NCBI GenBank assembly: GCA_963704725.1
Contig: OY969934.1
Span: 2,560,001 to 2,624,000 of the forward strand
Direction of reading: 5' to 3'
From: an uncultured Actinomycetes bacterium
Lineage (GTDB): Bacteria > Actinomycetota > UBA4738 > HRBIN12
DNA length: 64,000 bases
In this document: positions 25,115-59,347 of the stretch, piece by piece
Position numbering within the stretch: position 1 is the first letter of the stretch
Layout: each line of letters begins with the position of its first letter
Position numbers and translations under genes: made by a program
The notes under the pieces: model-generated
Told to the model about the DNA's origin: nothing
Databases searched by the model: none
What the model saw: the letters and a program-made list of their open reading frames with translations, nothing else

Positions 25115-25522
25115 TCACGGGACGATCTCGAACGCAGGAGCGTGAGCCGGGCGAACGACCGTGAGATGCCTTCGATCGAGCGTCGCCAGGCGCACGACGC
25201 GAAGGCGCTCCGCGGTGGCCACGACAGAAGCGTCGACGGTGCCGAGGGGAAGGTCCCGGTATTCGGCAACGAGCTCGGCAATCCGGATCCAGTCGGCGGG
25301 GTGAACCGGCTCCGCGATCAGGTTCCCCGCCGCCAGGTCGCCGAGGAATCGGACCTCTGCCTCCGCGCCGAGCCGCGTCTCGAGGAGGTAGGTCACCTCG
25401 GTCACGACGAGCTCCGGGACGATCAGGGGCCCGGGATGGCCTTCCAGCAGTGCCAGGCTGGCGTCGTGGTCGCGATCGTCCTCGTCGACGTAGGCGTACA
25501 GAGGACCGGCATCGACGATCAA
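25115..25522 (-). CDS. vapC: VapC PIN-domain toxin (copy 1)
   Basis: IVDAGPLYA...VVTEV...LGTVDASVVA...ATLDRRH acidic PIN residues; start overlaps the antitoxin stop. Confidence 0.9.
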   Translation of the reverse strand: MIVDAGPLYAYVDEDDRDHDASLALLEGHPGPLIVPELVVTEVTYLLETRLGAEAEVRFLGDLAAGNLIAEPVHPADWIRIAELVAEYRDLPLGTVDASVVATAERLRVVRLATLDRRHLTVVRPAHAPAFEIVP

Positions 25523-25746
25523 CGAGATCGGCGGGCCTCCCGCCGCAGGATCTCCTCGATCTTGCGGGCGGTGTCACGACGGCCGCTCCGGCCGGCCTTC
25601 GCGGCCATCAGACGCCGGCGCCCGGCGCCGAGGTGGGACTCGATGGCCTCGCGCGTGAGCTCGGACACCGTCGTCCCTCGCCGCTCGGCTTCGTGGCGAA
25701 GCCGCGCGTCGAGATCGTTCGAGAGCTTCACGGTCGTCCGCTTCAT
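25519..25746 (-). CDS. vapB: VapB / CopG ribbon-helix-helix antitoxin (copy 1)
   Basis: MKRTTVKLSNDLDARLRHEAERRGTTVSELTREAI RHH pattern, directly upstream of the PIN gene. Confidence 0.88.
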   Translation of the reverse strand: MKRTTVKLSNDLDARLRHEAERRGTTVSELTREAIESHLGAGRRRLMAAKAGRSGRRDTARKIEEILRREARRSR

Positions 25747-25762: not shown

Positions 25763-25840
25763 CTTCGCCAGTCACACGTCAACCGGAGGGGGCGATACTG
25801 TCTTGCTCCTCTTGGCCGCGCCGTGCGGTCGGAGAAGCGC

Positions 25841-25949
25841 CGACCTCCCACATTCAGGAGCTCGAAGAACCGGAGAGCCGGGACCGCGATTGTCGTCGAC
25901 CGAGACGAGGAACTTGCTCATGATTCCGCAAGGTAGCCGGATATGCGTG
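25841..25949 (-). pseudogene. Internally deleted relic of a vapBC2-like operon (promoter + antitoxin N-terminus fused to mid-toxin)
   Basis: 25891-25949 aligns by eye with 27800-27858 (MSKFLVSVDD vs MSKILVSVDD); 25841-25890 aligns with 27422-27470. Confidence 0.7.
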
Positions 25950-27091: not shown

Positions 27092-27131
27092 CCAACAACG
27101 CTCAGGCACGAGGTCTGAGCGTTCTTGGACC
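27092..27131. repeat. 40-bp direct repeat copy 1: hairpin AACGCTCAGGC-ACGAG-GTCTGAGCGTT plus TGGA att core
   Basis: Identical to 28226-28265; followed by the att-like arm TTGGGGGGATCGTATTCGAGC. Confidence 0.9.
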
Positions 27132-27168
27132 TTGGGGGGATCGTATTCGAGCTTCACGCGAGACTCCC

Positions 27169-27585
27169 TCACGTGGTTGAGGGCGACTCTCCAAGAAGCG
27201 GACGGGTGATCTCGCCGGCGAGGGCGACGATCCTCTCATCATCGGTCACGAGCGCCACGCCCCGCTCCTCTGCCAACGCCACGTAGGCCGCGTCGTACGC
27301 GGTGAGCCCGCGGGCCACCCAGGACGCAACGGAGTGCAACGCCGGCTCCCCGACCTCGAACAGGAGGTCATCGAGGGCTTCCGCGAGTTCGAGGAGCGCT
27401 TCCTCCGTCCATTTCCAACGCCGACCCGCCACATTCAGGAGCTCGAGGAACAGGAGGGCCGGCACCGCAACGAACAAACGACCAGCCCGGTACTCGCTCC
27501 GAAGCTCGCGCGCCTCGGCGGATCCACGCTGTTCGGCAGCGAACCACTTGAGCACCACCGAGGCGTCGAGCACGACCTCGGTCAA
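27169..27585 (-). CDS. vapC: VapC PIN-domain toxin (copy 2)
   Basis: VVLDASVVLKWF...LFLELLN...LTAYDAAYVALAE...LVTDD; TTG start overlaps the antitoxin stop (TTGA). Confidence 0.9.
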   Translation of the reverse strand: MTEVVLDASVVLKWFAAEQRGSAEARELRSEYRAGRLFVAVPALLFLELLNVAGRRWKWTEEALLELAEALDDLLFEVGEPALHSVASWVARGLTAYDAAYVALAEERGVALVTDDERIVALAGEITRPLLGESPSTT

Positions 27586-27830
27586 CGAGAGTCCCGCTCC
27601 GCTCGTACCGCCGCCGTTGCCTCCTCCTCGGCAGGCTGGGCCTCGAACAGCCTCTCGAGCCGAGTGAGGGCACGCCGGGCTTGCGGGCCGGCGCCGGGTC
27701 CGCGATCCGCGCCCAGGTCGCGCGCCGCCAAACGAGCCAAGTAGGCACTGCGACTCAGCCCGGCTGCCTTTGCAGCACGGTCGATCCGGGCAAGCAGCTT
27801 GTCGTCGACCGAGACGAGGATCTTGCTCAT
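27582..27830 (-). CDS. vapB: VapB / RHH antitoxin (copy 2)
   Basis: MSKILVSVDDKLLARIDRAAKAAGLSRSAYL RHH pattern. Confidence 0.88.
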   Translation of the reverse strand: MSKILVSVDDKLLARIDRAAKAAGLSRSAYLARLAARDLGADRGPGAGPQARRALTRLERLFEAQPAEEEATAAVRAERDSR

Positions 27831-27838
27831 GGACCCCA

Positions 27839-27855
27839 GGATATCCCGGATATCC
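27839..27855. promoter_or_regulatory. Tandem palindromes GGATATCC-C-GGATATCC, probable vapBC2 operator
   Basis: Two 8-bp palindromes 8 nt upstream of the vapB2 start. Confidence 0.6.
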
Positions 27856-27970
27856 GTGCGCCGGCAAGCGTTTCCTTGCCCGGGCCACGGATCGATCGTG
27901 CAGGCACCACGGCCGAGAGTTCAACGGCAACTGGCGAGGTGGGCGAACGAGGCACAAGGCGGGGTATGTC

Positions 27971-28252
27971 ATGGTCCGCATGCCGGAACACCCGAGAGCC
28001 CGAACGGCCGGCTACGTCTTCGAACATATCCTCGTGATAGAAGACTTCCTTGAGCGCCACCTCATGCCGGATGAGCAGGTGCATCACCGAAACGGCGTTA
28101 GGGACGACAACCGTCTCGAGAATCTGGAGCTCTGGATCCGTCCACAGCCCAGTGGCATACGGGTCGAGGACGCGATCGCCTGGGCCTACGACATCCTCGC
28201 CCGCTACGCGGGCCTGGCGGCACCCCCAACAACGCTCAGGCACGAGGTCTGA
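27971..28252 (+). CDS. HNH endonuclease (phage/homing type), N-terminus probably truncated
   Basis: NGNWRGGRTRHKAGYVMVRMPEHP...YVFEHILV...EQVHHRNGVRDDNRLENLELW. Similarity begins near 27920, upstream of the first ATG; the stop codon lies inside the 40-bp repeat. Confidence 0.82.
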   Translation: MVRMPEHPRARTAGYVFEHILVIEDFLERHLMPDEQVHHRNGVRDDNRLENLELWIRPQPSGIRVEDAIAWAYDILARYAGLAAPPTTLRHEV

Positions 28253-28265
28253 GCGTTCTTGGACC
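28226..28265. repeat. 40-bp direct repeat copy 2: hairpin plus TGGA core, the distal junction of the ssrA-integrated element
   Basis: Identical to 27092-27131; followed by TATTCGAACTCGG (28277-28289), the reverse complement of CCGAGTTCGAATA (38052-38064). Confidence 0.9.
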
Positions 28266-28319
28266 CAGGGGGATGCTATTCGAACTCGGGCACGGCGCTC
28301 GTCAAGCTGCTCACTGATC

Positions 28320-28455
28320 TCACGGAAGGATCTCGAACGCGTGGGCGTGAGCTGGACGCACAACTGTGAAGTGCCTGCGATCGAGCGTGGTCAGGGTGCA
28401 CAAGGCGGAGACGCTCCGCTGTGGCTGCGACCAGGCCATCGACAGTACCGAGGCG
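28320..28455 (-). pseudogene. vapC: Frameshifted C-terminal fragment of a vapC1-like toxin
   Basis: LGTVDGLVAATAERLRLVH / LTTLDRRHFTVVRPAHAHAFEILP versus vapC1 LGTVDASVVATAERLRVVRLATLDRRHLTVVRPAHAPAFEIVP. Confidence 0.8.
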
Positions 28456-28499
28456 ATGAGTTTCCCCCCATACTGATCGCCCTTGGCCTGCACGAACAT

Positions 28500-28944
28500 G
28501 TACGTGTAGAAGCCGGCTTCGGTCACCTGAAGGACCCGGCAGCTCGTCTTGATCGAGTGGCCCTCAGCGACCATCACCTTGATGACGGCGAACCGGCCTT
28601 TTGGGGCACCGCCCCCTTCAGCAGTTGCTTGGCTCGTCGTTCGGCGGCCAGCTCCGCCTCCAAGGCGTTGATCCGACGCCGCGCGGCGGCGAGCTCGGAG
28701 CGCTCGGCCGTGCTCAGGCCCGGCAGATCGCCGCGGTCGATCCGATCCTGTTTGCGCCAGTTGTAGATGCAGGCGTCACTGATGCCCAGATCCTCGGCGA
28801 CCTCGGTGAGGCTTCGTCCAGCCGCCAGCAAGTCCAGGACCTTCCGCCTGAACTCCGGCGGATAGCTCCTCGGCATGCCGTTCCTCCTTGCTCTCGAGCA
28901 TGAGGATCCCAGCAAACCGACTCAACAGGACCGAGGGCAGACCA
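28500..28944 (-). mobile_element. Truncated IS3-family element (left IR, intact orfA 28574-28876, first ~25 codons of orfB)
   Basis: OrfA MPRSYPPEFRRKVLDL...GISDACIYNWRKQD HTH; CCCCAAAAG frameshift window; orfB start CRVLQVTEAGFY; IR-like TGGTCTGCCCTCGG from 28944; no DDE domain. Confidence 0.85.
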
Positions 28945-29022
28945 CCCTGCAATCGGGCTCCGCTTGACTCCCTATGTGGACCCCGGATGCCCGTGGCGTT
29001 CGCCAATGAATCCACGGCACCG

Positions 29023-29478
29023 TCAGCACAACACGTCGCCTCCCGACGGTGGCATGTAGGCGAATGACCCCAGAGGCTCCGGAATGGAATAGACAACGTT
29101 GTCAGCCTGGAATAGGCCCCGCGCCTTCGTAACGTATGCCCTGTTGTGCGTACACCCCTGCACGGTCTTGTTCCGAGTAACCTGAGTGACGTTGTACACG
29201 TTCCCGCTATCGACGCACGTCCCAATTTGTGTCCTGGAAGAGCCGTTCCAGTACGCCGCACAGACGATGACCCTAATCCAAGTGGGATAGCAGCCAGGTG
29301 TGATCACCTTCATCTGAGCTTTGAAGAGTGGGTTGCCGTTGCTGTTAAGTACTGGATGCCACATGTTCAGGCTCATGAAGCAATCCTGCGCCTTGGCCGG
29401 TGGCGGTGCGGTCACCGTCAAGGATGTGAGGAGCGCTGCGGACACCAACACGGTTGCGATCTTGGATGTGAGCTTCAT
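29023..29478 (-). CDS. Secreted hypothetical protein, 151 aa with 6 Cys
   Basis: SD GGAGG; Sec signal ending AKA|QD; GC markedly lower than the host genes. Confidence 0.75.
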   Translation of the reverse strand: MKLTSKIATVLVSAALLTSLTVTAPPPAKAQDCFMSLNMWHPVLNSNGNPLFKAQMKVITPGCYPTWIRVIVCAAYWNGSSRTQIGTCVDSGNVYNVTQVTRNKTVQGCTHNRAYVTKARGLFQADNVVYSIPEPLGSFAYMPPSGGDVLC

Positions 29479-29542
29479 GTTGGCCTCCTGCCCAAAGGCC
29501 GTGCGTCTCTAAGTCGGCGCCCGCATTAGTGCAACGGGCGAC

Positions 29543-29836
29543 CTACCCCGTGCTCCCCGGTGGGGGAAGAGGAACGTCTGGTGGATCGACTGATCCCGTA
29601 AGCATCGCGGGGGGCACGAGTACCTGCTCAGTACCATCAGGCGCGATACCGACCACCTGACCTGTCCAAGTCGCGCTCGATGAAACCTGAGGAGCGTCCA
29701 TTGCACGCGCGCCTGGCACCCCCCACAGGTACAGCACGATGGCGCCAACGGTCAGCGCCATGGCCACGTATCCACTGCGCCTAACCACCTGACACACCGG
29801 CCCTCGCCTCCTCACCCTTGCCCGAGACTGACCCAT
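29543..29836 (-). CDS. Small possibly exported hypothetical protein (start uncertain; alternative ATG at 29761)
   Basis: Hydrophobic stretch ending ARA| followed by a Pro-rich tail; same orientation as neighbours. Confidence 0.35.
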   Translation of the reverse strand: MGQSRARVRRRGPVCQVVRRSGYVAMALTVGAIVLYLWGVPGARAMDAPQVSSSATWTGQVVGIAPDGTEQVLVPPAMLTGSVDPPDVPLPPPGSTG

Positions 29837-29960
29837 CCCACCGGATCGTACCGCCTCGATTCCAGGCAGGCAGTCGGACGAAGGGTCTACTCAATCGTTC
29901 TGGAGGAGTCCCCAACGCGAGTTGGCTGCCGGGCACCTCCTCGCCCGGCGGGTGATCAGC

Positions 29961-32732
29961 TCATTCAGCGACGCGCATTACCTCGCCAAGGTCCACCGCA
30001 CGGGCGCGCCGGTTGGCGAAGGCGGCCCCGCTCCATGTCAGGAGGCCGGCGAGTGCGGCCGTCAAGACAAAGAGCGCTCCGGGGATGAGAAACAGCGGCT
30101 TGGGCGGGATGGTGGGGATCGGATCAAGCAGTGGAACGGTCACCCGAGCCGCGAGGATGGCGAGTCCTCCTCCAACGGCGAATCCGACGGCGATCATCCC
30201 CCCGAGCTCAATGGCGAGCGCCCTTCGATGCTGTCCGTGCTGCATCCCCATGCGTATTGACAGGGCGTAGGAGACGATCTGCGACCGTTGGCGTGCCTGC
30301 AGATACATGAGCATGCCCACGAACGTGAGCGCTGCAGCGATCAGCCCAAGAGCGTTGATGATCAGGAACGTGTCGATCGCTGCCGAGATCGCAGGGATGT
30401 CCTCTACCTCGGCGGCTGTCACGATGAGCGACGGGGCGACCTGCAACGTCGCGAGCGCCCGACGCACCGCGCCTGGTTCGCCCCGGATCCACAGCTCGGC
30501 CCCATGTCGTTGGAGCGGATTCAGGGGACTATCAAGCCGTTCCAGCAGACCTTGCTCGTCAACTACGACCAGCGGCCTCAGCGAGAACAACCCCGGAAAC
30601 GCCTTCGGCCGTGCCACCACCTCGACCGGAACCTCGGTCGTTCCGACCAGGATTTCGCTCACGTCGAGCTCCCCCGCGGCCGCCAGCACGACGGGCAGCG
30701 GACCACCCTCGCTCGGTACCCGCAGCTCCCGGACAAGGGTCTGGATTGGCTCGGCCGCAAACGCATCGTTCCAGTACGCGGCTTCCGCGAACGAGCCCGG
30801 GTCGACGGCGAGCAGGTCAAGGGTCCGACCGGACGGCAATCGGGCTCCCTCCCCCACCTGCACCACACGCGTGACCGGGAAGGGGAAGTCCGGCGGCGCC
30901 TGTGAGATGTAGTCGATGCTCGCCGCGACGTCGCTGCCGACGAAGACCCTCGCCTTCGCGGTGACCGTGGTCTCCAACGACGTGGCAACCGCCTGGGCGT
31001 GGAGGAACAGCCCAAGGCAAAGCCCCGCCGCCCCGATCAAGGCGATGACCAGCGTGCCACCCGTGGCGAGCCGTCGCGCCGCCAGGTAGATGCTCGGTGA
31101 GGCGCGGCTGGTCGGCCGACGCAGCAGCCCGAAGATGAGATGGGCAAGGCGCCCGCCCAGAAAGGCAAACCCCGCAAGCAGCAGCGAGGGGAACGCAACA
31201 AGCGCGAGGCTCGGTCGCGAGACTCCGAGCGCCGGATCGGTGAAGAACGCCCCCTCATGGTCCAGCCTTCGCAACGCGATGTAGCTCAGCCACACCACCA
31301 CGAGCTCGACAGGCACGGCCGCGACCAACCGCGCGAACCGGCGATCATGCGGGCTGACGATGCGGACGAAGGCGACCTCGGCCACGATGGAGGTCAGCAG
31401 GATGGAGCCAACGAGGGCGACTGCCGACCGAGCGGCGGCATCCGCGTAAGCCGCACGGTCGACTGACCCGCCCGGTCCAAGGAGGGTGACCACGACCACC
31501 GCGAGCAGCAGTCCGAGCACGCCGCCCGTGATGGACGGGAGCACGGACTCCAACGCGTTCCTCGCCCCCACGCGGGCCGGGGAGGTACCTCGAGCAAACA
31601 GCCAGGCGGCCTCGACACGTCGTGTACGCATGCCGAAGGCACCTGCGGCGGCAACGACCACCAGGGCGACAGCCAACGCCGCAAGCTCCAGCACTTGGGC
31701 CGGACCTTGGATCGTCGCGATTCGGCGTTCCGCCTCCTCGACGACTTCGTGGATCAAGGAGCCGAACGTTGTTTCTGCATCCTCGACCGGTGGCCCCCAC
31801 CGACCGCAACAGCCCAAGATGCGGCCGATGGGCGTCTCTCCGAACGAGAACGTCCCGACCTGGGCCTGGTAGGCGTCGAGCGAGCGGACGTCCTCCAATG
31901 TGACGCCTGTTGGAGCCGCGACCGGTGCCTGCCATGAGAACGTGGCCGACGACCCTCCCAGTTCGCGCGTGAGTTCGATGACCTGATCGAAGTCGGCGAG
32001 GATGGGCTGGGCCGGGGGTGACGATCCCAGGCTCACCAGCCGGAACTCGTCCTGCCACTGGAGCCAGTAGCCGCCGGGCGGCCAGGCGAAGTAGATGTCG
32101 CGATACACGCCGTCGACCCGCACATTGATCTCGGACGCGCGAGCGCCGTCCCCGCTCAGGAGATGGACTTCATCACCAGGCCTGACCCCGAGCTCGTTTG
32201 CGATCAGCTCAGGAAGCCAGACGCCGTCGCCGTCGACCCCGGAGAGGCGCTCGACATGAGCGAGCACGCCGGGCGATGCGAACAACCGGCCCGCCTGTGT
32301 TCCCGCTCGTCCCTCGAACGACAGGGCGACAGGGTCACCCAGCACTGCAGCGAGCGGGCCTCCCAGTACAGGACTTCCCGAAGCAAGCCGGCCGAAGGCG
32401 TCGTTCAACTCGCGGACTGCGGGCGTTTGAAGCCCGTCATTCACACGAACCGGATCGAGCGGAAGGCTCTTGAACGTGTAGGTCAGGCCGGCCAGGTACC
32501 GCGTGATGTTCGGCCGATCGATCGCTCCCCTGATCAGATCGCTGGAGGTCGCCGACAAGAACAGCGGGTAAGCCGCCGCCGCCAGCACAAGGAGTAGCGC
32601 CCCCGCCACAGCGGCGGCAAACAGCGCTGGATACCTAAGCTGCACGAACGGGGCCCGCCGCCAGATCGCACCCTTCCGGCGAGGCGGACGCCGGACGCGG
32701 GCCTGCGAACGGGCGGCTGCGGCCCCGCTCAC
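29961..32732 (-). CDS. Large FtsX/MacB-like ABC transporter permease (923 aa), no cognate ATPase adjacent
   Basis: TM-large extracellular domain-TM cluster repeated twice; RRVEAAWLFARG and ALSIRMGM...LAIE FtsX-like loops. Confidence 0.8.
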   Translation of the reverse strand: MSGAAAARSQARVRRPPRRKGAIWRRAPFVQLRYPALFAAAVAGALLLVLAAAAYPLFLSATSSDLIRGAIDRPNITRYLAGLTYTFKSLPLDPVRVNDGLQTPAVRELNDAFGRLASGSPVLGGPLAAVLGDPVALSFEGRAGTQAGRLFASPGVLAHVERLSGVDGDGVWLPELIANELGVRPGDEVHLLSGDGARASEINVRVDGVYRDIYFAWPPGGYWLQWQDEFRLVSLGSSPPAQPILADFDQVIELTRELGGSSATFSWQAPVAAPTGVTLEDVRSLDAYQAQVGTFSFGETPIGRILGCCGRWGPPVEDAETTFGSLIHEVVEEAERRIATIQGPAQVLELAALAVALVVVAAAGAFGMRTRRVEAAWLFARGTSPARVGARNALESVLPSITGGVLGLLLAVVVVTLLGPGGSVDRAAYADAAARSAVALVGSILLTSIVAEVAFVRIVSPHDRRFARLVAAVPVELVVVWLSYIALRRLDHEGAFFTDPALGVSRPSLALVAFPSLLLAGFAFLGGRLAHLIFGLLRRPTSRASPSIYLAARRLATGGTLVIALIGAAGLCLGLFLHAQAVATSLETTVTAKARVFVGSDVAASIDYISQAPPDFPFPVTRVVQVGEGARLPSGRTLDLLAVDPGSFAEAAYWNDAFAAEPIQTLVRELRVPSEGGPLPVVLAAAGELDVSEILVGTTEVPVEVVARPKAFPGLFSLRPLVVVDEQGLLERLDSPLNPLQRHGAELWIRGEPGAVRRALATLQVAPSLIVTAAEVEDIPAISAAIDTFLIINALGLIAAALTFVGMLMYLQARQRSQIVSYALSIRMGMQHGQHRRALAIELGGMIAVGFAVGGGLAILAARVTVPLLDPIPTIPPKPLFLIPGALFVLTAALAGLLTWSGAAFANRRARAVDLGEVMRVAE

Positions 32733-32955
32733 TGCAGCCGATCTCTCAAAGGGCTATGAAGGCCAGTCCCAGGGTACTGACACGTACCCCTTCGATGGCC
32801 GACGTGTGTCGGTTCTCGGCACAGGCCACCTGAGGTCAGGTCGCGCCGAGGCCCCCCAACTCGGCGCGGAGACACGCCCCAGGCGGACAGCCACGTCAGG
32901 CCGACCCCGTGGACCCTGGCCACCACGAAGTCCAAGAGGGCCACTCGTGGGCTGA

Positions 32956-33207
32956 TCAGCAGGGGACCGTGAAACACTGCCCCACATTGGTGTTGCAGAT
33001 GCAGCCCGGATTACACCCCGTGCACGTGTATGCGACGGTGCCGCCAGAACAGCTCTTGCAGCTCGATCGGCAACACGTCGTGGCAGCCTGAGCGGGCACC
33101 GCCTGCGACAAGATGCCAAGTCCAGCCCCCACCGCCGCGATTCTCCCTGCGAGGCGAAGGAACCGCCTGCGACTTGGTGACGCGACGCCATCGTCATCTG
33201 CGGCCAC
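32956..33207 (-). CDS. Tat-exported cysteine-rich miniprotein precursor (83 aa; 42-aa mature part with 10 Cys)
   Basis: SD GGAGG 8 nt before GTG 33207; SRRRFL Tat motif, hydrophobic region, AQA| cleavage site; mature ATTCCRSSCKSCSGGTVAYTCTGCNPGCICNTNVGQCFTVPC. Confidence 0.85.
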   Translation of the reverse strand: MAADDDGVASPSRRRFLRLAGRIAAVGAGLGILSQAVPAQAATTCCRSSCKSCSGGTVAYTCTGCNPGCICNTNVGQCFTVPC

Positions 33208-33233
33208 GATCGACACCTCCCTTCCTGCTCCGA

Positions 33234-33833
33234 TCACGTGAGGGCCCGCACGTCGTCGCCTCCGATCTTCACCTCCTCTCCGAAGGCCACACCGACAAGC
33301 CGGGCCAGTTCCGACACGGTGTTCGGGAATCCCTTGCTGGCAACCATGCCCCCTCGATCAAAGACAAAGGCATGAGGTGTCGATGACGTCTCGAGGGCTC
33401 GTGAAACATCTCCGTCATCCTGATAGAGGACTACGGCGCCCGTCCGCTGGAGCAGCGCTTCGTCTGTTTCGGCAAGATGGCCCTCTGAAACGACAAACGT
33501 GGAGATGGGGAGACCATCCGCGTCGGTTGACTGGATCTCCCCGATGAGCTGTTTGCACGGCCCGCAGGAGGGATCAACAAGCAAGAGAACGCCGCGCTGC
33601 GCTAGCATTCTTGAACTCTCGAAACGCCTTCCCTGCCGGTCGCGGACGCTGAACCTCGCAATTCGGCTCCCAACGGATATGCCACCAGCTGCGGATGCGG
33701 CGCTGCCTTTGATGAGCCTCTCTGCCGCCTCAAGAAGCTGAACGCTCCGGCGGAGGACGCCCGCAGTGACGAAGGCGTTCAGGCAAGTGACCAGCGCAAG
33801 GAGTGCGAACGCGACGATCCACGGCCAACTCAT
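33234..33833 (-). CDS. Membrane-anchored thioredoxin-like protein (MauD/TlpA-like)
   Basis: N-terminal TM, G(I)SVGSRIARFSVRD, VDPSCGPCKQL (CXXC) and cis-Pro loop STPHAFVFD; ATGA-coupled to the mauE-like gene. Confidence 0.85.
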   Translation of the reverse strand: MSWPWIVAFALLALVTCLNAFVTAGVLRRSVQLLEAAERLIKGSAASAAGGISVGSRIARFSVRDRQGRRFESSRMLAQRGVLLLVDPSCGPCKQLIGEIQSTDADGLPISTFVVSEGHLAETDEALLQRTGAVVLYQDDGDVSRALETSSTPHAFVFDRGGMVASKGFPNTVSELARLVGVAFGEEVKIGGDDVRALT

Positions 33834-34414
33834 GACGCCTCCAATCCCTGCGAACTCCTGGCCCGGCGGTGGGCGCTCAAGAACGCGCCGGTCGCCAAGG
33901 CGAGCCGCCACAGGCAGATCGTCAAGAGTCCGGACAGAGCGACGCCCAGGAAGTCGGTGCCGGGAAGAGCCTCCCCGGCTGGACTCCGAAGTGGGGCCCA
34001 AAGCCCCACGTCGTTACGGGTGGCGAACACGGCAATCGCCGCAGCAAGTGCAATCAAGCCGAGGTTTCGACTGACGGTCCACCAGCTGATCAACCTTGAA
34101 GAATCACCGAAGCAGCCGCAGGGAACCCTCTCGCCCCGACGGAGGACGATCACGACCGCACCCGTGAAGCCCAGGAGAATAGTCGTGGTCAGCACCGCCA
34201 CCCATGGGACCGCGGCCCCCAGCAGCAGTCCGAAGCCCAGGAAGACTTCGGAAGCCGCGACGGCGAGCGCTACCCCGGGAACGACTCTGGCCGGGACGAG
34301 CCGATATCGCCAGACCGCCTCGCGGTACGAGGCGCGGTCCAGCAGCTTGATGGCGCCCCCGGCCACCAGGAGGCCGCCGAGGACCAAACGACCTGCGAGC
34401 AGGAAGCCTTGCAT
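33830..34414 (-). CDS. MauE/DoxX-family redox membrane protein
   Basis: RLVLGGLLVAGGAIKL...YRLVP...E...VPCGCFG...RNL pattern; 4-5 TM helices. Confidence 0.88.
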   Translation of the reverse strand: MQGFLLAGRLVLGGLLVAGGAIKLLDRASYREAVWRYRLVPARVVPGVALAVAASEVFLGFGLLLGAAVPWVAVLTTTILLGFTGAVVIVLRRGERVPCGCFGDSSRLISWWTVSRNLGLIALAAAIAVFATRNDVGLWAPLRSPAGEALPGTDFLGVALSGLLTICLWRLALATGAFLSAHRRARSSQGLEAS

Positions 34415-35344
34415 GCTCCCCCACCGCGACGTACGAAGTGCCGATGAGGGTTGCACACCTGAGCATCGAGGCGCAACCCACTCATTCGACCTACGTCGGG
34501 CCCAGGCCGCCCGCCTGAGCAAGACCCGGCACCCTCCGGGTTAGGCAGTCGGCTCTGTCTCCACAGAATCTCCCCCTTGTCCCCGCCCGGCGACACGCCT
34601 CCTCGTCGACTCGCCGTGCTGCCGGTCCGAACAATCCGGTTAAGGGCCACGGTCCCCACCCCAGTCCCCCCGCGCTTGCCGAGACTCCACGATTTCTCAC
34701 CCCCTCGAGAGACGGTCCTCGCCTTAGCTCCAGGCACGAAGGGGGACTCGATGGGGAGTGAATGGGGAGTCGGACCCGACAACATCGGCTCGACAACCGA
34801 AGAGGTCTCGGCGATCCACTGGTTCGCCGCGAGCAGGCTCCGAAGGCGACGGCACGCTCGCCACCGGCGGTCGGTTCGGGCAGATGAGCGGAGATGCGCG
34901 GCAGCACCGGCGCGACGGTCAGGGACGCGAGCCGGACGAGCGAGCATACGGCCCCGAACCCGGGCACCTCATGGCGAGGCGCGCTCGAAGAAGACGGAGG
35001 CCGGACGAACGCTCGGACGGCGAGCGGACGGACCGGAGCACCCGGTGGGCCCGTGGAGGTCCGCGGAGTGATGCCCGCGCCGGATGCCGAACGGCGAGCT
35101 CGGCCGGCGGCTGAGGAAGCGTGCACGGCGGCGATGAAGGAGGTGAGCACGGGCACGAACTGGAGATCCGTCGACCTGACGGTGAGTGCGCTTGCGCCCT
35201 GGCGCGGCGTCGCGCTTCCCCATAGCCGTGGAAACGGCGCGTGGGCGGCGCGACGGCGCCGGGTGCGGGAGCGCAAAAGGCCAGGTCACGGGGCCTCTTT
35301 GCCGAAGGCCACCCACCGAAGGAGGGGGGAGCTGTGCCCAGAAT

Positions 35345-36331
35345 ATGGTTCGAGCAGAACGAAACGACCTTCACCGCGTGGTCTCGCTCGATGAACGAGA
35401 CCACGCGATCTTCCTCAGCCTGCTCGAGCACAAGGTCCTCACCACCTACCAGATCAAGAACCTCTACTTCCGCTCCTTCAGACGAGCCCAGCACCGGATG
35501 AAGGAACTGAGAGATCTTGATCTGGTCTCATCGTTTCAGGTGGGGAGGGGTTTCGGGGAGGGGAGGCCGCCAGCGTGCTGGTACCTCACCAAGCCCGGCC
35601 TCGTCGAGATCGCCGACGCCAAGGACGTCCGGGTCTCCGACCTGCCCTGGGTCCCCGATCACAGCTACCGGACGAACAAGATCCTTGCCCACCGCCTCGG
35701 GGTCAACGCGTTCTTCTGCGCCCTCGCCGAGGCCTCCAGAGCCCACGAGGGTCACTGTCTCGTCACCTGGCGGCCCGAACACTGGGTCCGCACCAGGGCC
35801 GCGGAGGTCAAGCCGGACGGGTTCGGGCGGTACCTGCACCCGGGCGGCGCTTGCGAGTTCTACCTGGAGTACGACCGGGGCACCGAGGCGTTCGGCGCGC
35901 TGTCGCGAAAGCTCGCGGGCTACCTCCGGCTCGCGGCGGGGTGGACGAAGGAGCAGGAGCTTCCGGGCCTTCCGAACCTCCTCATCATCGTCCCGGAGGG
36001 GGTGCGCGAGGGGGAGGTCGGCTCGGCCTTCCGTCACGCCACCGGGAGCCTGCACGTCTCGGGCCCGCTCGCGACCTCGTTCCCGCTGTACGTGGCGAGC
36101 GAGGACGTCCTCACTGAGCTCGGCGTGCTCGGGGCCGTGTGGAAGCACCTGCCCACCGACGGCGATCGCCTCTTGCTCCTCGACCTGCCGGCCCAGCCCC
36201 GCGACCTCCACCAGTCCGCTCGATGCCTCGGCCGGCACTTCACAGACGCTGACGCCGGCCAGCGTCGTCGGATCTCCCCTGTCTCGACCACACCCCGATT
36301 CCGCGCCCTGCCGCCCCGACATGCCCCTTGA
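35345..36331 (+). CDS. Replication-relaxation family protein (Replic_Relax)
   Basis: N-terminal wHTH (LDERDHAIF...HKVLTTYQI...YF), LAHRLGVNAFF, VKPDGFG, FYLEYDRGTE, KLAGY. Confidence 0.85.
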   Translation: MVRAERNDLHRVVSLDERDHAIFLSLLEHKVLTTYQIKNLYFRSFRRAQHRMKELRDLDLVSSFQVGRGFGEGRPPACWYLTKPGLVEIADAKDVRVSDLPWVPDHSYRTNKILAHRLGVNAFFCALAEASRAHEGHCLVTWRPEHWVRTRAAEVKPDGFGRYLHPGGACEFYLEYDRGTEAFGALSRKLAGYLRLAAGWTKEQELPGLPNLLIIVPEGVREGEVGSAFRHATGSLHVSGPLATSFPLYVASEDVLTELGVLGAVWKHLPTDGDRLLLLDLPAQPRDLHQSARCLGRHFTDADAGQRRRISPVSTTPRFRALPPRHAP

Positions 36332-36573
36332 CCCCGCGCCGCGCGAATGCGCGCGGGCTCGAGGACGACCACGATCGCCGTCGCGACGGGATCACCCCGG
36401 CATCGGCCGACGAGCACGACGCCCCGGGAGCGACACCTGCCCGGACTACGCTTGCGCGTTCGGCGACGGGACGGCCGGAGCCACCCAAGCCAGGAGCTCT
36501 TCGACCCTTGGCCCGAGCCCTGGTCGACCTGGCACTGGCACTGGATCACGAGAACGAGGAGGACGAGCGATGA
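36328..36573 (+). CDS. Small hypothetical protein coupled to the recombinase (start uncertain)
   Basis: TTGA overlap with the relaxase stop and ATGA overlap with the recombinase start; helical C-terminus ALRPLARALVDLALAL. Confidence 0.5.
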   Translation: MTPRRANARGLEDDHDRRRDGITPASADEHDAPGATPARTTLARSATGRPEPPKPGALRPLARALVDLALALDHENEEDER

Positions 36574-38150
36574 ACGCGGTGATCTACCTCCGGGTCTCGA
36601 CCAAGGAGCAGGCCTCCAACGACGAGGCCGGCGAGGGGTACTCGATCCCGGCCCAGCGGGAGGGGTGCCTTCGCCACATCGCCGAGCGAGGGTGGAGCCT
36701 CGCCGGGGAGTTCACCGACGCCGGCGAGTCGGCCCGCACCGCCGACCGTCCGCAGCTGAAGGCCATGCTCCGCCGAGTGGCCGAGGGCGGGATCGGAGCC
36801 GTCGTCGTCCACAAGATCGATCGGCTGGCCCGCTCGATGGAGGACCACGTGGCCATCAGGGCGGCGCTGCGTCACGCGGGGGTCCAGCTGGTGTCCGTGA
36901 CCGAGAACATCGAGGAGACGGCCTCTGGGCGCCTCGTGGAGGGCATCCACGCGCTCATGGCCGAGTTCTACTCGGCCAACCTGGCCGGTGAGATCCGAAA
37001 GGGCATGACCCAGAAGGCCAAGATGGGCGGCTGGCCTACCAAGGCACCGATCGGCTACCTGAACGTCCGGGAGAAGACGGCCGGCAAGGACATCGCCAAG
37101 GTGATCCTCGACCCCGAGCGAGCCCTGCTCGTCCGAGAGACGTTCCGGCTGTACGCCACAGGCGACTACTCGCTTCCCGAGCTGCAGGCGGTGATGCACT
37201 CCAAGGGGCTGACGTCCCCGTACGCGAGGAGGCCGGGCGCTCCGGTCTCGATCTCCAAGCTCGCCGAGCTCCTGGCGAACCCCTTCTACCTCGGGGTCGT
37301 GCAGTGGGGAGGCGCCCGGTATCCCGGCCAGCACAAGGCGCTCATCCCCCAGAGCCTGTTCGACCGGGTCCAGGAGACTCTGCGGGCTCGCGACGTCGCC
37401 GGGGTTCGCCAGCGGCGCCACGAGCACTACCTGAAGGGGCTGCTGCACTGCGGGGAGTGCGGGAGGCGCCTGTCGCTCACGCTCGCCAAGGGCAAGTACC
37501 TCTACTTCTACTGCCTGGGCCAGCGAGGGACCGCGCGCACCGGATGCCGCCAGCCGTACATCCTGGCCGGGGACGCAGAAGCGCTCGTGGAGGACCTGTA
37601 CGAGAGGATCCAGCTTCCGCCCTCCTGGGTGAGCCGGCTCACCGAGGAGCTGGAGGCCGAGATCGTCGAGCGGCAGGCCGAGGCCTCGGAACGCCGGGTC
37701 CTCCTCACGAAGACGCTCGCCAAGGCGGCCGATGAGCGCGGCAAGCTCCTGCAGGCTTTCTACGCGAACGCGATCCCGCTCGATCTGTTGAAGACGGAGC
37801 AGGACCGCATCGGCATCGCCGAACACGCCGCCAAGGACGAGCTCCAGTCGGCGGAGGGCGACCTCGAGGGCTGGCAGGACGTGCTGGGGACCGCCATCCG
37901 GCTCGCCGGTAACTGCCACGCTGCCTATCTGAAGGCGCGACCCTCGGTGCGACGACGCTTCAACGACGCCGTACTCGAGGCCGTCTACATCAAGGATCGC
38001 AAGATCGGCCGGGCGGAGTTCTCTGAGGTCTTCGCGCCTGTCTTCTCTCGGCCGAGTTCGAATAAGGCACTGAAAGTGGAGGCGGGGGGAATCGAACCCC
38101 CGTCCTCGGGCGTCCACTCGGGTCTTCTCCGGGCGCAGCCGGCGGGTTGA
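36570..38150 (+). CDS. Large serine recombinase (resolvase + recombinase + Zn ribbon); last 24 codons come from antisense tmRNA sequence
   Basis: AVIYLRVST catalytic Ser, VVHKIDRLAR, APIGY, LANPFYLG, LKGLLHCGECG, YFYC...C; ends SSNKALKV|EAGGIEPPSSG. Confidence 0.93.
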   Translation: MNAVIYLRVSTKEQASNDEAGEGYSIPAQREGCLRHIAERGWSLAGEFTDAGESARTADRPQLKAMLRRVAEGGIGAVVVHKIDRLARSMEDHVAIRAALRHAGVQLVSVTENIEETASGRLVEGIHALMAEFYSANLAGEIRKGMTQKAKMGGWPTKAPIGYLNVREKTAGKDIAKVILDPERALLVRETFRLYATGDYSLPELQAVMHSKGLTSPYARRPGAPVSISKLAELLANPFYLGVVQWGGARYPGQHKALIPQSLFDRVQETLRARDVAGVRQRRHEHYLKGLLHCGECGRRLSLTLAKGKYLYFYCLGQRGTARTGCRQPYILAGDAEALVEDLYERIQLPPSWVSRLTEELEAEIVERQAEASERRVLLTKTLAKAADERGKLLQAFYANAIPLDLLKTEQDRIGIAEHAAKDELQSAEGDLEGWQDVLGTAIRLAGNCHAAYLKARPSVRRRFNDAVLEAVYIKDRKIGRAEFSEVFAPVFSRPSSNKALKVEAGGIEPPSSGVHSGLLRAQPAG

Positions 38151-38426
38151 TCTCACCTCGAGGCTCCCGCCGGCGGAGCACCTCTCGGCCAGCCCGGGTG
38201 CGATGTCCGGCGGCGGCCCCCGGGCGGAACCGTCTCCGTAAGCCTGCTCACGACGCCCGACCCCGAGTCGCAGGCGGACCTGGGCGGACGGCTGCCTAAC
38301 TCAGTTAGGCGGCGAGCGCGTAGTTATCGGCGCTTGTGTTGATCCCGGCTTTTCACGAGGCATCCGGGGACCTCGGCCCGCTTCCCCCGAGCGGTTCATC
38401 GCTCGAGTCGAAGCCAGTACACCCCC
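38077..38426 (-). ncRNA. ssrA: tmRNA; tag reading frame 38305-38331 encodes ADNYALAA; CCA not fully encoded
   Basis: 5' GGGGGTGTACTGGCTTCGAC and 3' GGGGGTTCGATTCCCCCCGCCTCCA with G3.U70; tag ends YALAA*; directly downstream of smpB. Confidence 0.95.
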
Positions 38427-38444
38427 ATATGCAGTTGTTCACCG

Positions 38445-38450
38445 AGTATA
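38445..38450 (-). promoter_or_regulatory. -10 box TATACT of ssrA
   Basis: 18 nt upstream of the mature tmRNA 5' end. Confidence 0.6.
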
Positions 38451-38456
38451 CGGCGG

Positions 38457-38931
38457 CTACCGACGCCGCCCCGCCTCGCGCAGCATCTCGCGCTCGTGCT
38501 CGCGCTCCGCGAGCGCCTGGCGCTTCTCGTACTGGCGCTTGCCACGCGCCAGCCCGAGCTCCATCTTGGCGATCCCGTGGACGAAGTAGACGCGCAGCGG
38601 CACCAGTGCCAGTCCGCGCTCCGCAGTCTTCCCGATCAGGCGCTCGATCTCCTTGCGATGCAGGAGCAGCTTCCGAGTCCGGATGGGGTCGTAGACGCGC
38701 TTGTCCATGGCCTGCTCGTACGGCGGGATGTGCATCCCCTCGATCCACACCTCGCCGTCGCGGACCCTCGCGAACGACTCGGCCAGCGAGCCGCGGCCCG
38801 CCTCGAAGCGACTTGACCTCGGCCCCGGTGAGCACGATGCCGGTCTCGAAGTGCTCGAGGATCTCGTAGTCGCGCCGGGCGCGCCGGTTGGAGACGACGG
38901 TTCGCTCGCCGGGGTCCGCCTTGGGGCTCAT
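38457..38931 (-). CDS. smpB: SsrA-binding protein SmpB, with a one-base frameshift near 38802
   Basis: NRRARRDYEILEHFETGIVLTGAEVKSLR in one frame, then GSLAESFARVRDGEVWIEGMHIPPY...RTRKLLLHRKEI...ARGKRQYEKR in another; span is 3n+1. Confidence 0.9.
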
Positions 38932-59108: not shown

Positions 59109-59347
59109 GGGCTCGCGTCCGGCTGACCTGGTCTTTGCCCCCACACCCGCCTGCCGGGGTGATCGACGGTCATCGACCGGCTTCGCACCCTCTCCCGGCG
59201 AGGTCGCCCCCGCCGAGGCAGGACTGACATCTAAACCGCGCCATGCTCACCGACCAACTGTCGGCTTACGTGGGTCGCTTCGCCCGCGGCTGGCCTCGAC
59301 TACCGGGGAGCGATTCCCCGGGCAACCACAGACCCGGACGCGAGCCC
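59109..59347 (-). ncRNA. raiA-motif structured RNA
   Basis: 14-bp terminal stem GGGCTCGCGTCCGG/CCGGACGCGAGCCC; blocks GGTCTGTGGTTG, CCACGTAAG, TGAGCATGG, AGTCCTGCC and GTGTGGGGGCAAAGACCAGGTCA match the motif as I recall it; comF-raiA context; TATACT at 59355-59360. Confidence 0.88.

Follow-up and report, generated by a model that had tools for sequence, protein, structure and literature searches.

What becomes of an integrase whose gene runs across its own attachment site, so that its last codons differ between the inserted and the circular state? This question is raised by a window of 64,000 nucleotides (nt) of contig OY969934.1 (GCA_963704725.1), the stretch analysed here, which comes from an uncultured Actinomycetes bacterium with a one-contig genome of 3.45 Mb. 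At the transfer-messenger RNA (tmRNA) gene ssrA the window harbors an integrated element of 9,817 bp (window positions 28264-38080) with a GC content of 66.7% compared to 72.3% in the flanks. Its genes include an intact large serine recombinase (LSR) and a Replic_Relax gene as well as cargo. We consider it probable that the LSR recombines the attachment site of a circular form, attP, with the last bases of tmRNA and tRNA genes, that the inserted enzyme thereby ends in a junk tail, and that the helical tail encoded on the circle is needed for full activity. The features on which this reading is built are the following.

36570..38150, plus strand: LSR in its integrated form, 526 amino acids (aa), codons 1-503 encoded by the element and the last 23 derived from antisense tmRNA
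28264..28369, plus strand: orphan 3' end of the LSR gene with 35 codons, some of them for an amphipathic helix, by which the enzyme would be completed in the circular state
38076..38426, minus strand: intact tmRNA gene (ssrA; ARAGORN and Rfam, start 38074/38076), with the T-arm and the acceptor 3' strand as the B arm of the host site attB
38077..38080, no strand: core at the tmRNA junction, i.e., the last acceptor-stem bases and the discriminator base of the tmRNA
38052..38076, no strand: proximal attP arm, consisting of the 13-bp arm 38052-38064 and a 12-nt spacer within the LSR coding sequence (spacing 12 in 19/19 junctions)
28260..28289, no strand: distal junction with the core 28260-28263, a 13-nt spacer and the arm 28277-28289 (spacing 13 in 23/25 arms)
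28221..28263, minus strand: B' arm of attB, a hairpin that would have adjoined the tmRNA before insertion (pattern and relatives' loci)
27092..27156, no strand: second hairpin-core-arm junction (core 27126-27129, decayed arm, 14-nt spacer), left over from an earlier insertion at this site

The arm at 38052-38064 is the exact reverse complement of that at 28277-28289, both being 13 bp long, and spacers of 12 nt (38065-38076) and 13 nt (28264-28276) flank the common TGGA (38077-38080 and 28260-28263). Joining of the two ends gives an attP of 55 bp with a 4-bp core, a short inverted-arm site as in large serine integrases. A perfect 13-mer match has a probability of 2.5e-9 per position and of at most 2.3e-6 over 30x30 offsets, and the 13-mer occurs four times in the 3.45-Mb genome, every time at the ends of this element family. 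The axis of attP lies on one base and is 1 bp off for either dinucleotide, an asymmetry that is fixed across the family. We are highly confident that the element and its sites are assigned correctly. Fourteen bases of the distal arm and core (28260-28273) are identical to the 3' end of tRNA-Ala(GGC) of the same genome, and the attP arm thus mimics a tRNA end.

How the site looked before insertion can be seen in relatives. The hairpin pattern was searched in 294 genomes of the class and matched 22, whereas the reversed control matched 0; the locus counts take in one unpublished genome, on which no conclusion rests. Among the 21 hairpin loci outside this genome, 17 have the hairpin directly after the tmRNA core, nine of them together with an HNH gene, and the remaining four adjoin an att arm, three like that of this element and one of related type. 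Since the hairpin directly follows the core in 17 of 21 loci, the rebuilt attB represents a natural configuration. An initial annotation of this DNA, made from its letters, had already described the arms, spacers and TGGA core, a rebuilt attB with the hairpin abutting the tmRNA, and a swap between two LSR tails. The att geometry was confirmed base for base, the rebuilt junction agrees with the 17 loci, relatives with the HNH-hairpin abutting ssrA, which it had suggested looking for, are present (the nine loci with an HNH gene), and both tails are as stated. Two points had to be amended: attP is symmetric about a single base instead of a dinucleotide, and the second junction at 27092-27156 had been overlooked.

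The open reading frame (ORF) of the LSR comprises 526 aa in the integrated state and 538 aa on the computationally joined circle, and it overlaps 74 nt of the tmRNA on the opposite strand. The protein contains the Pfam domains Resolvase (PF00239, E 1.6e-35), Recombinase and Zn_ribbon_recom. Pfam, conservation and AlphaFold together give an architecture of recombinase domain and four-cysteine zinc ribbon with an inserted coiled coil; among 116 sequences R8, S10, R85, R88, C294, C315, and C326 are invariant and C297 is nearly so. The AlphaFold model of the integrated form has a mean predicted local distance difference test (pLDDT) value of 90.6, with residues 497-507 and 513-526 below 50 and thus a disordered tail, and its best fold match is the SPbeta integrase (E 7e-20). 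In a homolog with a natural circle-type tail, AlphaFold predicts a helix at residues 362-374 with a pLDDT of about 62-65.

The tails themselves were compared in a set of 31 distinct arms (32 collected, one near-identical removed, the window's own arm not included). Over the 14 codons past the DNA arm the mean hydrophobic moment is 1.15 in the LSR frame, compared to 0.78 and 0.76 in the other two frames. Shuffling gave 0.68 +/- 0.06 for bases and 0.78 +/- 0.07 for residues, and 0 of 2000 shuffles of each kind reached the natural value, while the DNA identity across this region is only 31%. The window's own circle tail has a moment of 1.47, whereas 34 antisense tails, which range from 17 to 115 aa, have a mean of 0.65; circle tails are about 21 to more than 100 aa long. 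These values support protein-level selection on the circle tail, from which a specific role does not follow. Because the amphipathic helix is retained despite 31% DNA identity and is not reached by any of the shuffles, the circle tail is rather likely to be functional, but it is doubtful that it controls the direction of the reaction.

The hexamer GTTCGA is common to the two arms of attP and the T-loop of the RNA gene. With free gaps, the T-loop GTTCGA precedes the core by 11 nt and the arm follows it at 12 nt in all proximal junctions matched (19/19), and the distal arms have a 13-nt spacer in 23 of 25 cases with GTTCGA 16 nt from the core, whereas the reversed control pattern gave 0. The distance between motif and core is therefore 11 nt in the RNA gene versus 16 nt in attP, which is a shift of 5 bp, and for large serine integrases the zinc-domain motif is described as displaced by 5 bp from attB to attP (PMC11722253). 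By analogy, the T-loop GTTCGA can with good confidence be assumed to be read as the zinc-domain motif. On the other side of the core, the 22 downstream host arms (B') share 28% identity and do not contain TCGAAC, so that recognition looks one-sided. Moreover, the two ends of a tRNA-Leu element have different first core bases, and in the window the base after the core differs; the crossover should therefore fall within the CCA of the core, probably at CC. The RNA gene is intact through the discriminator base.

Besides the copy at ssrA, the same genome contains an LSR that is 93.6% identical at tRNA-Ala(CGC) and a 5'-truncated one that is 93.5% identical at tRNA-Ala(GGC), with matching distal arms 12 kb and 4 kb away, respectively. 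Since copies of about 94% identity sit at two tRNA-Ala genes of one genome, the enzyme family is not specific for ssrA, contrary to what the initial annotation had implied. More distant LSRs are located at tRNA-Glu (46% identical) and tRNA-Leu (25%), for which the search for distal arms found none. Across the class, 32 of 294 genomes contain an LSR match at E <= 1e-60, and the targets observed for the family are tmRNA, tRNA-Ala with three anticodons, tRNA-Leu and tRNA-Glu. Out of 30 LSR loci, including this one and one from an unpublished genome, 24 run stop-free and in one frame into the antisense T-arm, four have no T-arm at that spacing and two lack a 3' end. The best 120 protein homologs comprise 70 with antisense-tRNA tails, two with circle-type YSN tails, 14 with other tails and 34 without the anchor motif. 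Records with distal arms are mostly titled uncultured Actinomycetota, and the best LSR relatives in phage and plasmid records are only 24-36% identical. For engineering, which the initial annotation had in view, the LSR would be an enzyme of a T-arm half-site with several natural targets and not one half of a single orthogonal LSR/att pair.

Two further kinds of tail were observed in relatives. Five LSRs that are 85-91% identical to this one carry a different circle-type tail with an RCVNR motif, apparently supplied by the arm of a sister subfamily, which would be consistent with tandem insertion between subfamilies. In five loci of more distant relatives the frame past the joined att site spans 104-143 aa and looks helix-turn-helix-like by eye, and joining would therefore add a whole domain there.

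Joined junctions of the attP type were found in 17 metagenome contigs. Seven of these contain only the last 21-23 codons of the LSR, eight have no tblastn match to this LSR, and two carry a full LSR, 39% and 42% identical, of which one is phage-like and in frame and the other departs from the frame of the family at this point. As sequences, the 17 junctions confirm the junction geometry. The attP pattern gave 0 matches in viral contigs. In a search of sequencing runs no run contained more than 0.14 of the element's words, and no RNA run was among those listed. When contigs of four runs were compared with 27800-38500, none of the 15 joints listed, out of 35, led from 38080 to 28264, a result that is uninformative on excision.

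Directly upstream of the LSR lie two genes that bear on excision and mobility:

36328..36573, plus strand: small ORF of up to 81 aa, candidate recombination directionality factor (RDF), overlapping the Replic_Relax stop and the LSR start, with a conserved C-terminal helix
35345..36331, plus strand: Replic_Relax (PF13814), putative mobilisation or replication protein (Pfam)

The helix of the small ORF is present in 16 loci with LSRs that are 40-100% identical, and the ORF has no Pfam or NCBIfam match. Complex prediction of the small ORF with LSR residues 275-503 yielded a score of 0.59 compared to 0.02 for the best control, with at least 56% of the contacts shared and a partner pLDDT of at least 64. 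The pass mark of this prediction is reached by 116 of 157 solved and two of 215 mismatched pairs, and the range up to 0.60 holds 18 of the solved pairs and both mismatches. The small ORF is accordingly a weak candidate for the RDF, to be taken as a lead only. Copies of the Replic_Relax gene that are 74-87% identical precede the sister LSRs at tRNA-Ala(CGC), tRNA-Glu and tRNA-Leu; those at genome positions 1922874-1919932 and 2382011-2379290 are paired with LSRs of only 25% and 46% identity, respectively, and this mismatch suggests that integrase modules have been exchanged between elements. With its own integrase and a PF13814 gene, and without transfer genes among the ORFs scanned, the element may be an integrative mobilisable element; no conjugation or transfer genes were recognised among 20 ORFs scanned.

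Taken together, we propose the following mechanism. The LSR gene extends past its own attachment site into sequence antisense to the tmRNA gene, and the zinc domain, judged from known LSR structure, would bind GTTCGA, which lies 11 nt from the core in the host T-loop and 5 bp further out in both arms of attP. Judged likewise, the crossover would fall within the CCA of the core, probably at CC, and because of this position the RNA gene would stay whole up to the discriminator with nothing duplicated. The downstream host arm would barely be read, which would allow retargeting among tmRNA and tRNA genes as well as stacking of elements. More tentatively, the integrated enzyme with its junk tail might be less active, as reported for the phage Mx8, which would stabilise the inserted state, and the small upstream ORF might serve as directionality factor during excision. 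Transfer would need a helper, since no conjugation genes were recognised. It is unlikely that the idea can be carried as far as a widespread clade of serine integrases for which the universal T-loop of tRNAs is a one-sided attB and which set their own direction, in that a helix present only on the circle completes the integration-competent enzyme, while insertion removes this helix and frees its site for an excision-factor peptide with a helix, encoded upstream and translationally coupled.

Several observations weigh against the proposed reading. Neither an excised circle nor an empty site was observed for this very element, and the 17 attP-type junctions may be tandem relics instead of circles, so that they do not prove excision. 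An attP that is symmetric about one base and a B' arm without the zinc-domain motif are both unlike canonical LSR sites. The YSN-type circle tail is found in only two of the 120 homologs, and the arms of the tail test were chosen by pattern and are partly related to each other. In the AlphaFold model the catalytic and DNA-binding domains all finish by about residue 492, upstream of the crossover, and the circle tail may therefore be dispensable. This last point leads to a neutral explanation, in which the overlap of attP with the end of the gene serves to save space, the two forms do not differ in activity and the helix is only a guard against proteolysis or a leftover. That the folded domains end before the crossover, that the circle-tail helix has low model confidence and that circle tails vary from about 21 to more than 100 aa would all fit with it, as would the 28 C-terminal residues of the SPbeta integrase that are disordered in the maps (PMC11722253); besides, the integrated-form enzymes presumably must still excise. 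However, the amphipathic pattern is kept only in the LSR frame at 31% DNA identity and is lacking in antisense tails, and a reduced activity has been reported for the truncated integrase of Mx8 (cited in PMC4701971). A neutral swap is hence a possibility to be taken seriously, though not the outcome we expect. The opposite extreme is a true directionality switch, where the helices of the circle tail and of the small ORF would compete for a common site close to the zinc domain and the coiled coil. The circle form would then be limited to integration, and the integrated form could be turned towards excision. Each of the two helices is short, conserved and amphipathic, the small-ORF prediction (0.59) lends weak support, and the SPbeta RDF acts via a helix packed between the zinc domain and the coiled-coil hinge (PMC11722253). 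Yet the complex prediction returned no interface from which a shared site could be read, and passes this weak are, going by the calibration of the tool, wrong in the majority of cases, which makes such a switch improbable.

Control could also act at the RNA level, if antisense LSR transcription into ssrA or a read-through tmRNA transcript silenced the inserted integrase. The 74-nt overlap on opposite strands would permit this, but a scan for promoters and terminators of sigma-70 types found 0 sites in 34500-38600, which gives no support to the transcription antisense to ssrA that the initial annotation had suggested, and the same enzyme sits at tRNAs that differ in length and expression. We regard this as quite improbable. 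Finally, the boundaries might be wrong, with a mobile unit that reaches the 27126 junction or was inserted by another enzyme and to which the hairpin belongs. The second hairpin-core-arm junction 1,134 bp further out and a GC content that stays low to about 25000 speak for a larger unit. On the other hand, the inner arm is the perfect inverted partner and the outer arm is decayed, the hairpin and HNH gene abut the tmRNA without any LSR in relatives, and the sister elements terminate at equivalent arms, next to B' sequences that are unrelated; a boundary error is thus largely refuted and very improbable.

The arrangement of an integrase gene across its att site is already known, and the comparison given here follows the available parts of the papers cited, except where noted. 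In the ssrA islands of Dehalococcoides the gene of the LSR DsiB overlaps att at its 3' end, its stop codon comes from antisense ssrA or a neighboring island, tandem stacks occur, and DsiB was proposed to be fully functional perhaps only on the circle (McMurdie, 2011; PMC3146451). The layout, whose novelty the initial annotation had overstated, has therefore been described before together with the hypothesis. Similar to DsiB, the present LSR belongs to an island at ssrA, its gene overlaps att and takes its stop from antisense ssrA, and insertions are stacked. DsiB islands differ, however, by a reported 20-bp direct repeat and crossover in the T-loop, where here 4 bp are shared and the core is at the discriminator, and by a six-gene module (dsiA, RecF-like, ParB, Mom, embedded tRNA) in place of Replic_Relax and the small ORF; none of the module genes was found among the 20 ORFs scanned, and there is no tRNA inside the element. 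DsiB is confined to ssrA as opposed to tmRNA and several tRNAs here, a comparison made by description. Streptococcal integrative and conjugative elements (ICEs) with a single serine integrase at rumA also have att within the integrase gene, the C-terminus changes on integration, and a functional difference between the forms was proposed (Ambroset, 2016; PMC4701971), but they are full conjugative elements that target a protein gene with reciprocal exchange of the 3' ends. In myxophage Mx8, attP lies within int and integration replaces the C-terminus and lowers activity (cited in PMC4701971, PMC4383910); there, a tyrosine recombinase exchanges 112 residues for 13, unlike the serine recombinase here.

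With SPbeta SprA, Bxb1, phiC31, and A118/LI the LSR shares the domain order, the coiled coil of the zinc domain, sites of about 50 bp and, on the RNA-gene arm, the 5-bp motif shift (PMC11722253), whereas it differs from canonical LSRs by a motif on one attB arm only, attP arms at 12 and 13 nt from the core and an identity of 15-18%. Mycobacterium actinomycete ICEs (AICEs) with serine recombinases at tRNA-Leu have been called rare (Ghinet, 2011; PMC3218068); AICEs carry an FtsK-type transfer gene, which is not recognised here, and the parts of that paper at hand do not mention a tail overlap. According to the Islander paper, serine integrases were not known to target tRNA or tmRNA genes (Islander, 2015; PMC4383910), and islands of tyrosine integrases share the target class and the tandem arrays, but restore the gene by a duplicated fragment. 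Such an island was rejected here, as there is neither a tyrosine integrase nor a duplicated gene fragment. Likewise rejected were an SCCmec Ccr recombinase, with 115 of 900, 109 of 900 and 49 of 700 bits for NCBIfam CcrA, CcrB and CcrC and thus below the cut-off, and XisF membership, by profile scan. The geometry is not described in the available parts of PMC12884075, PMC13626063, PMC10654092 and the Durrant preprint, nor in PMC12424338; the main text of the preprint, as far as available, contains 0 occurrences of tRNA/tmRNA, and its supplements may list such sites. In the literature we found neither the T-loop half-site geometry nor the multi-target range, the circle-tail selection or the RDF candidate, although serine integrases at RNA genes may already be recorded in the TIGER database and in Fig. 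3J of PMC13626063.

The remaining cargo and the neighborhood contain the following features:

32956..34414, minus strand: MauE-like and MauD-like proteins and a small Cys-rich protein with a twin-arginine-like signal (Pfam/NCBIfam; signal judged by eye)
29961..32732, minus strand: FtsX-like permease of 923 aa (weak match, below the Pfam cut-off)
28320..28876, minus strand: 3' remnant of vapC (28320-28456) beside a remnant of transposase orfA (28577-28876; sequence scans)
27959..28252, plus strand: HNH gene ending in the hairpin, outside the element, with a 5' end shorter than that of relatives

The MauE/MauD-like cluster possibly provides a secreted disulfide-rich peptide together with folding helpers. 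HNH homologs occur in 25 of the 294 class genomes, and 21 of 24 non-self loci (one unpublished genome included) end directly behind T-arm and core on the opposite strand, 15 of them with the hairpin. Between the far hairpin arm and the 3' strand of the tmRNA acceptor stem 96.7% of cells are paired, three pairs are altered on both sides (3/500 shuffles), and U.G wobbles occur on the tmRNA strand. The patchy distribution suggests that the HNH-hairpin (27959-28263) is mobile on its own and might represent a free-standing homing endonuclease; a literature search by titles found no paper on this module. Behind ssrA there are two complete vapBC-type pairs and two remnants (25115-25746, 27169-27830, 25838-25922, 28320-28456), and PIN genes follow the tmRNA at three relatives' loci as well. 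The second junction with its decayed arm, the vapBC pairs and the remnants show that insertions took place here before. Further away, a raiA RNA motif (141 bits) is located at 59114-59342 on the minus strand.

The view that a serine integrase whose gene spans att attains its complete form only on the circle has been a guess since 2011, and we found no paper in the literature that tests it. Because the element is intact and offers defined sites, two enzyme forms and an RDF candidate, the question is directly testable here. Islands with a 4-bp core would escape island finders that rely on duplications, as no duplicated fragment is left. An enzyme that uses a T-arm half-site and spares the RNA gene might be used as a portable tool for integration, though each genome would offer it several targets. 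If it is true that insertion takes from the integrase gene the helix that completes the enzyme, serine integrases would have a mechanism of directionality that is new, and there would be a tool for scarless insertion of cargo behind tmRNA and tRNA genes in many bacteria.

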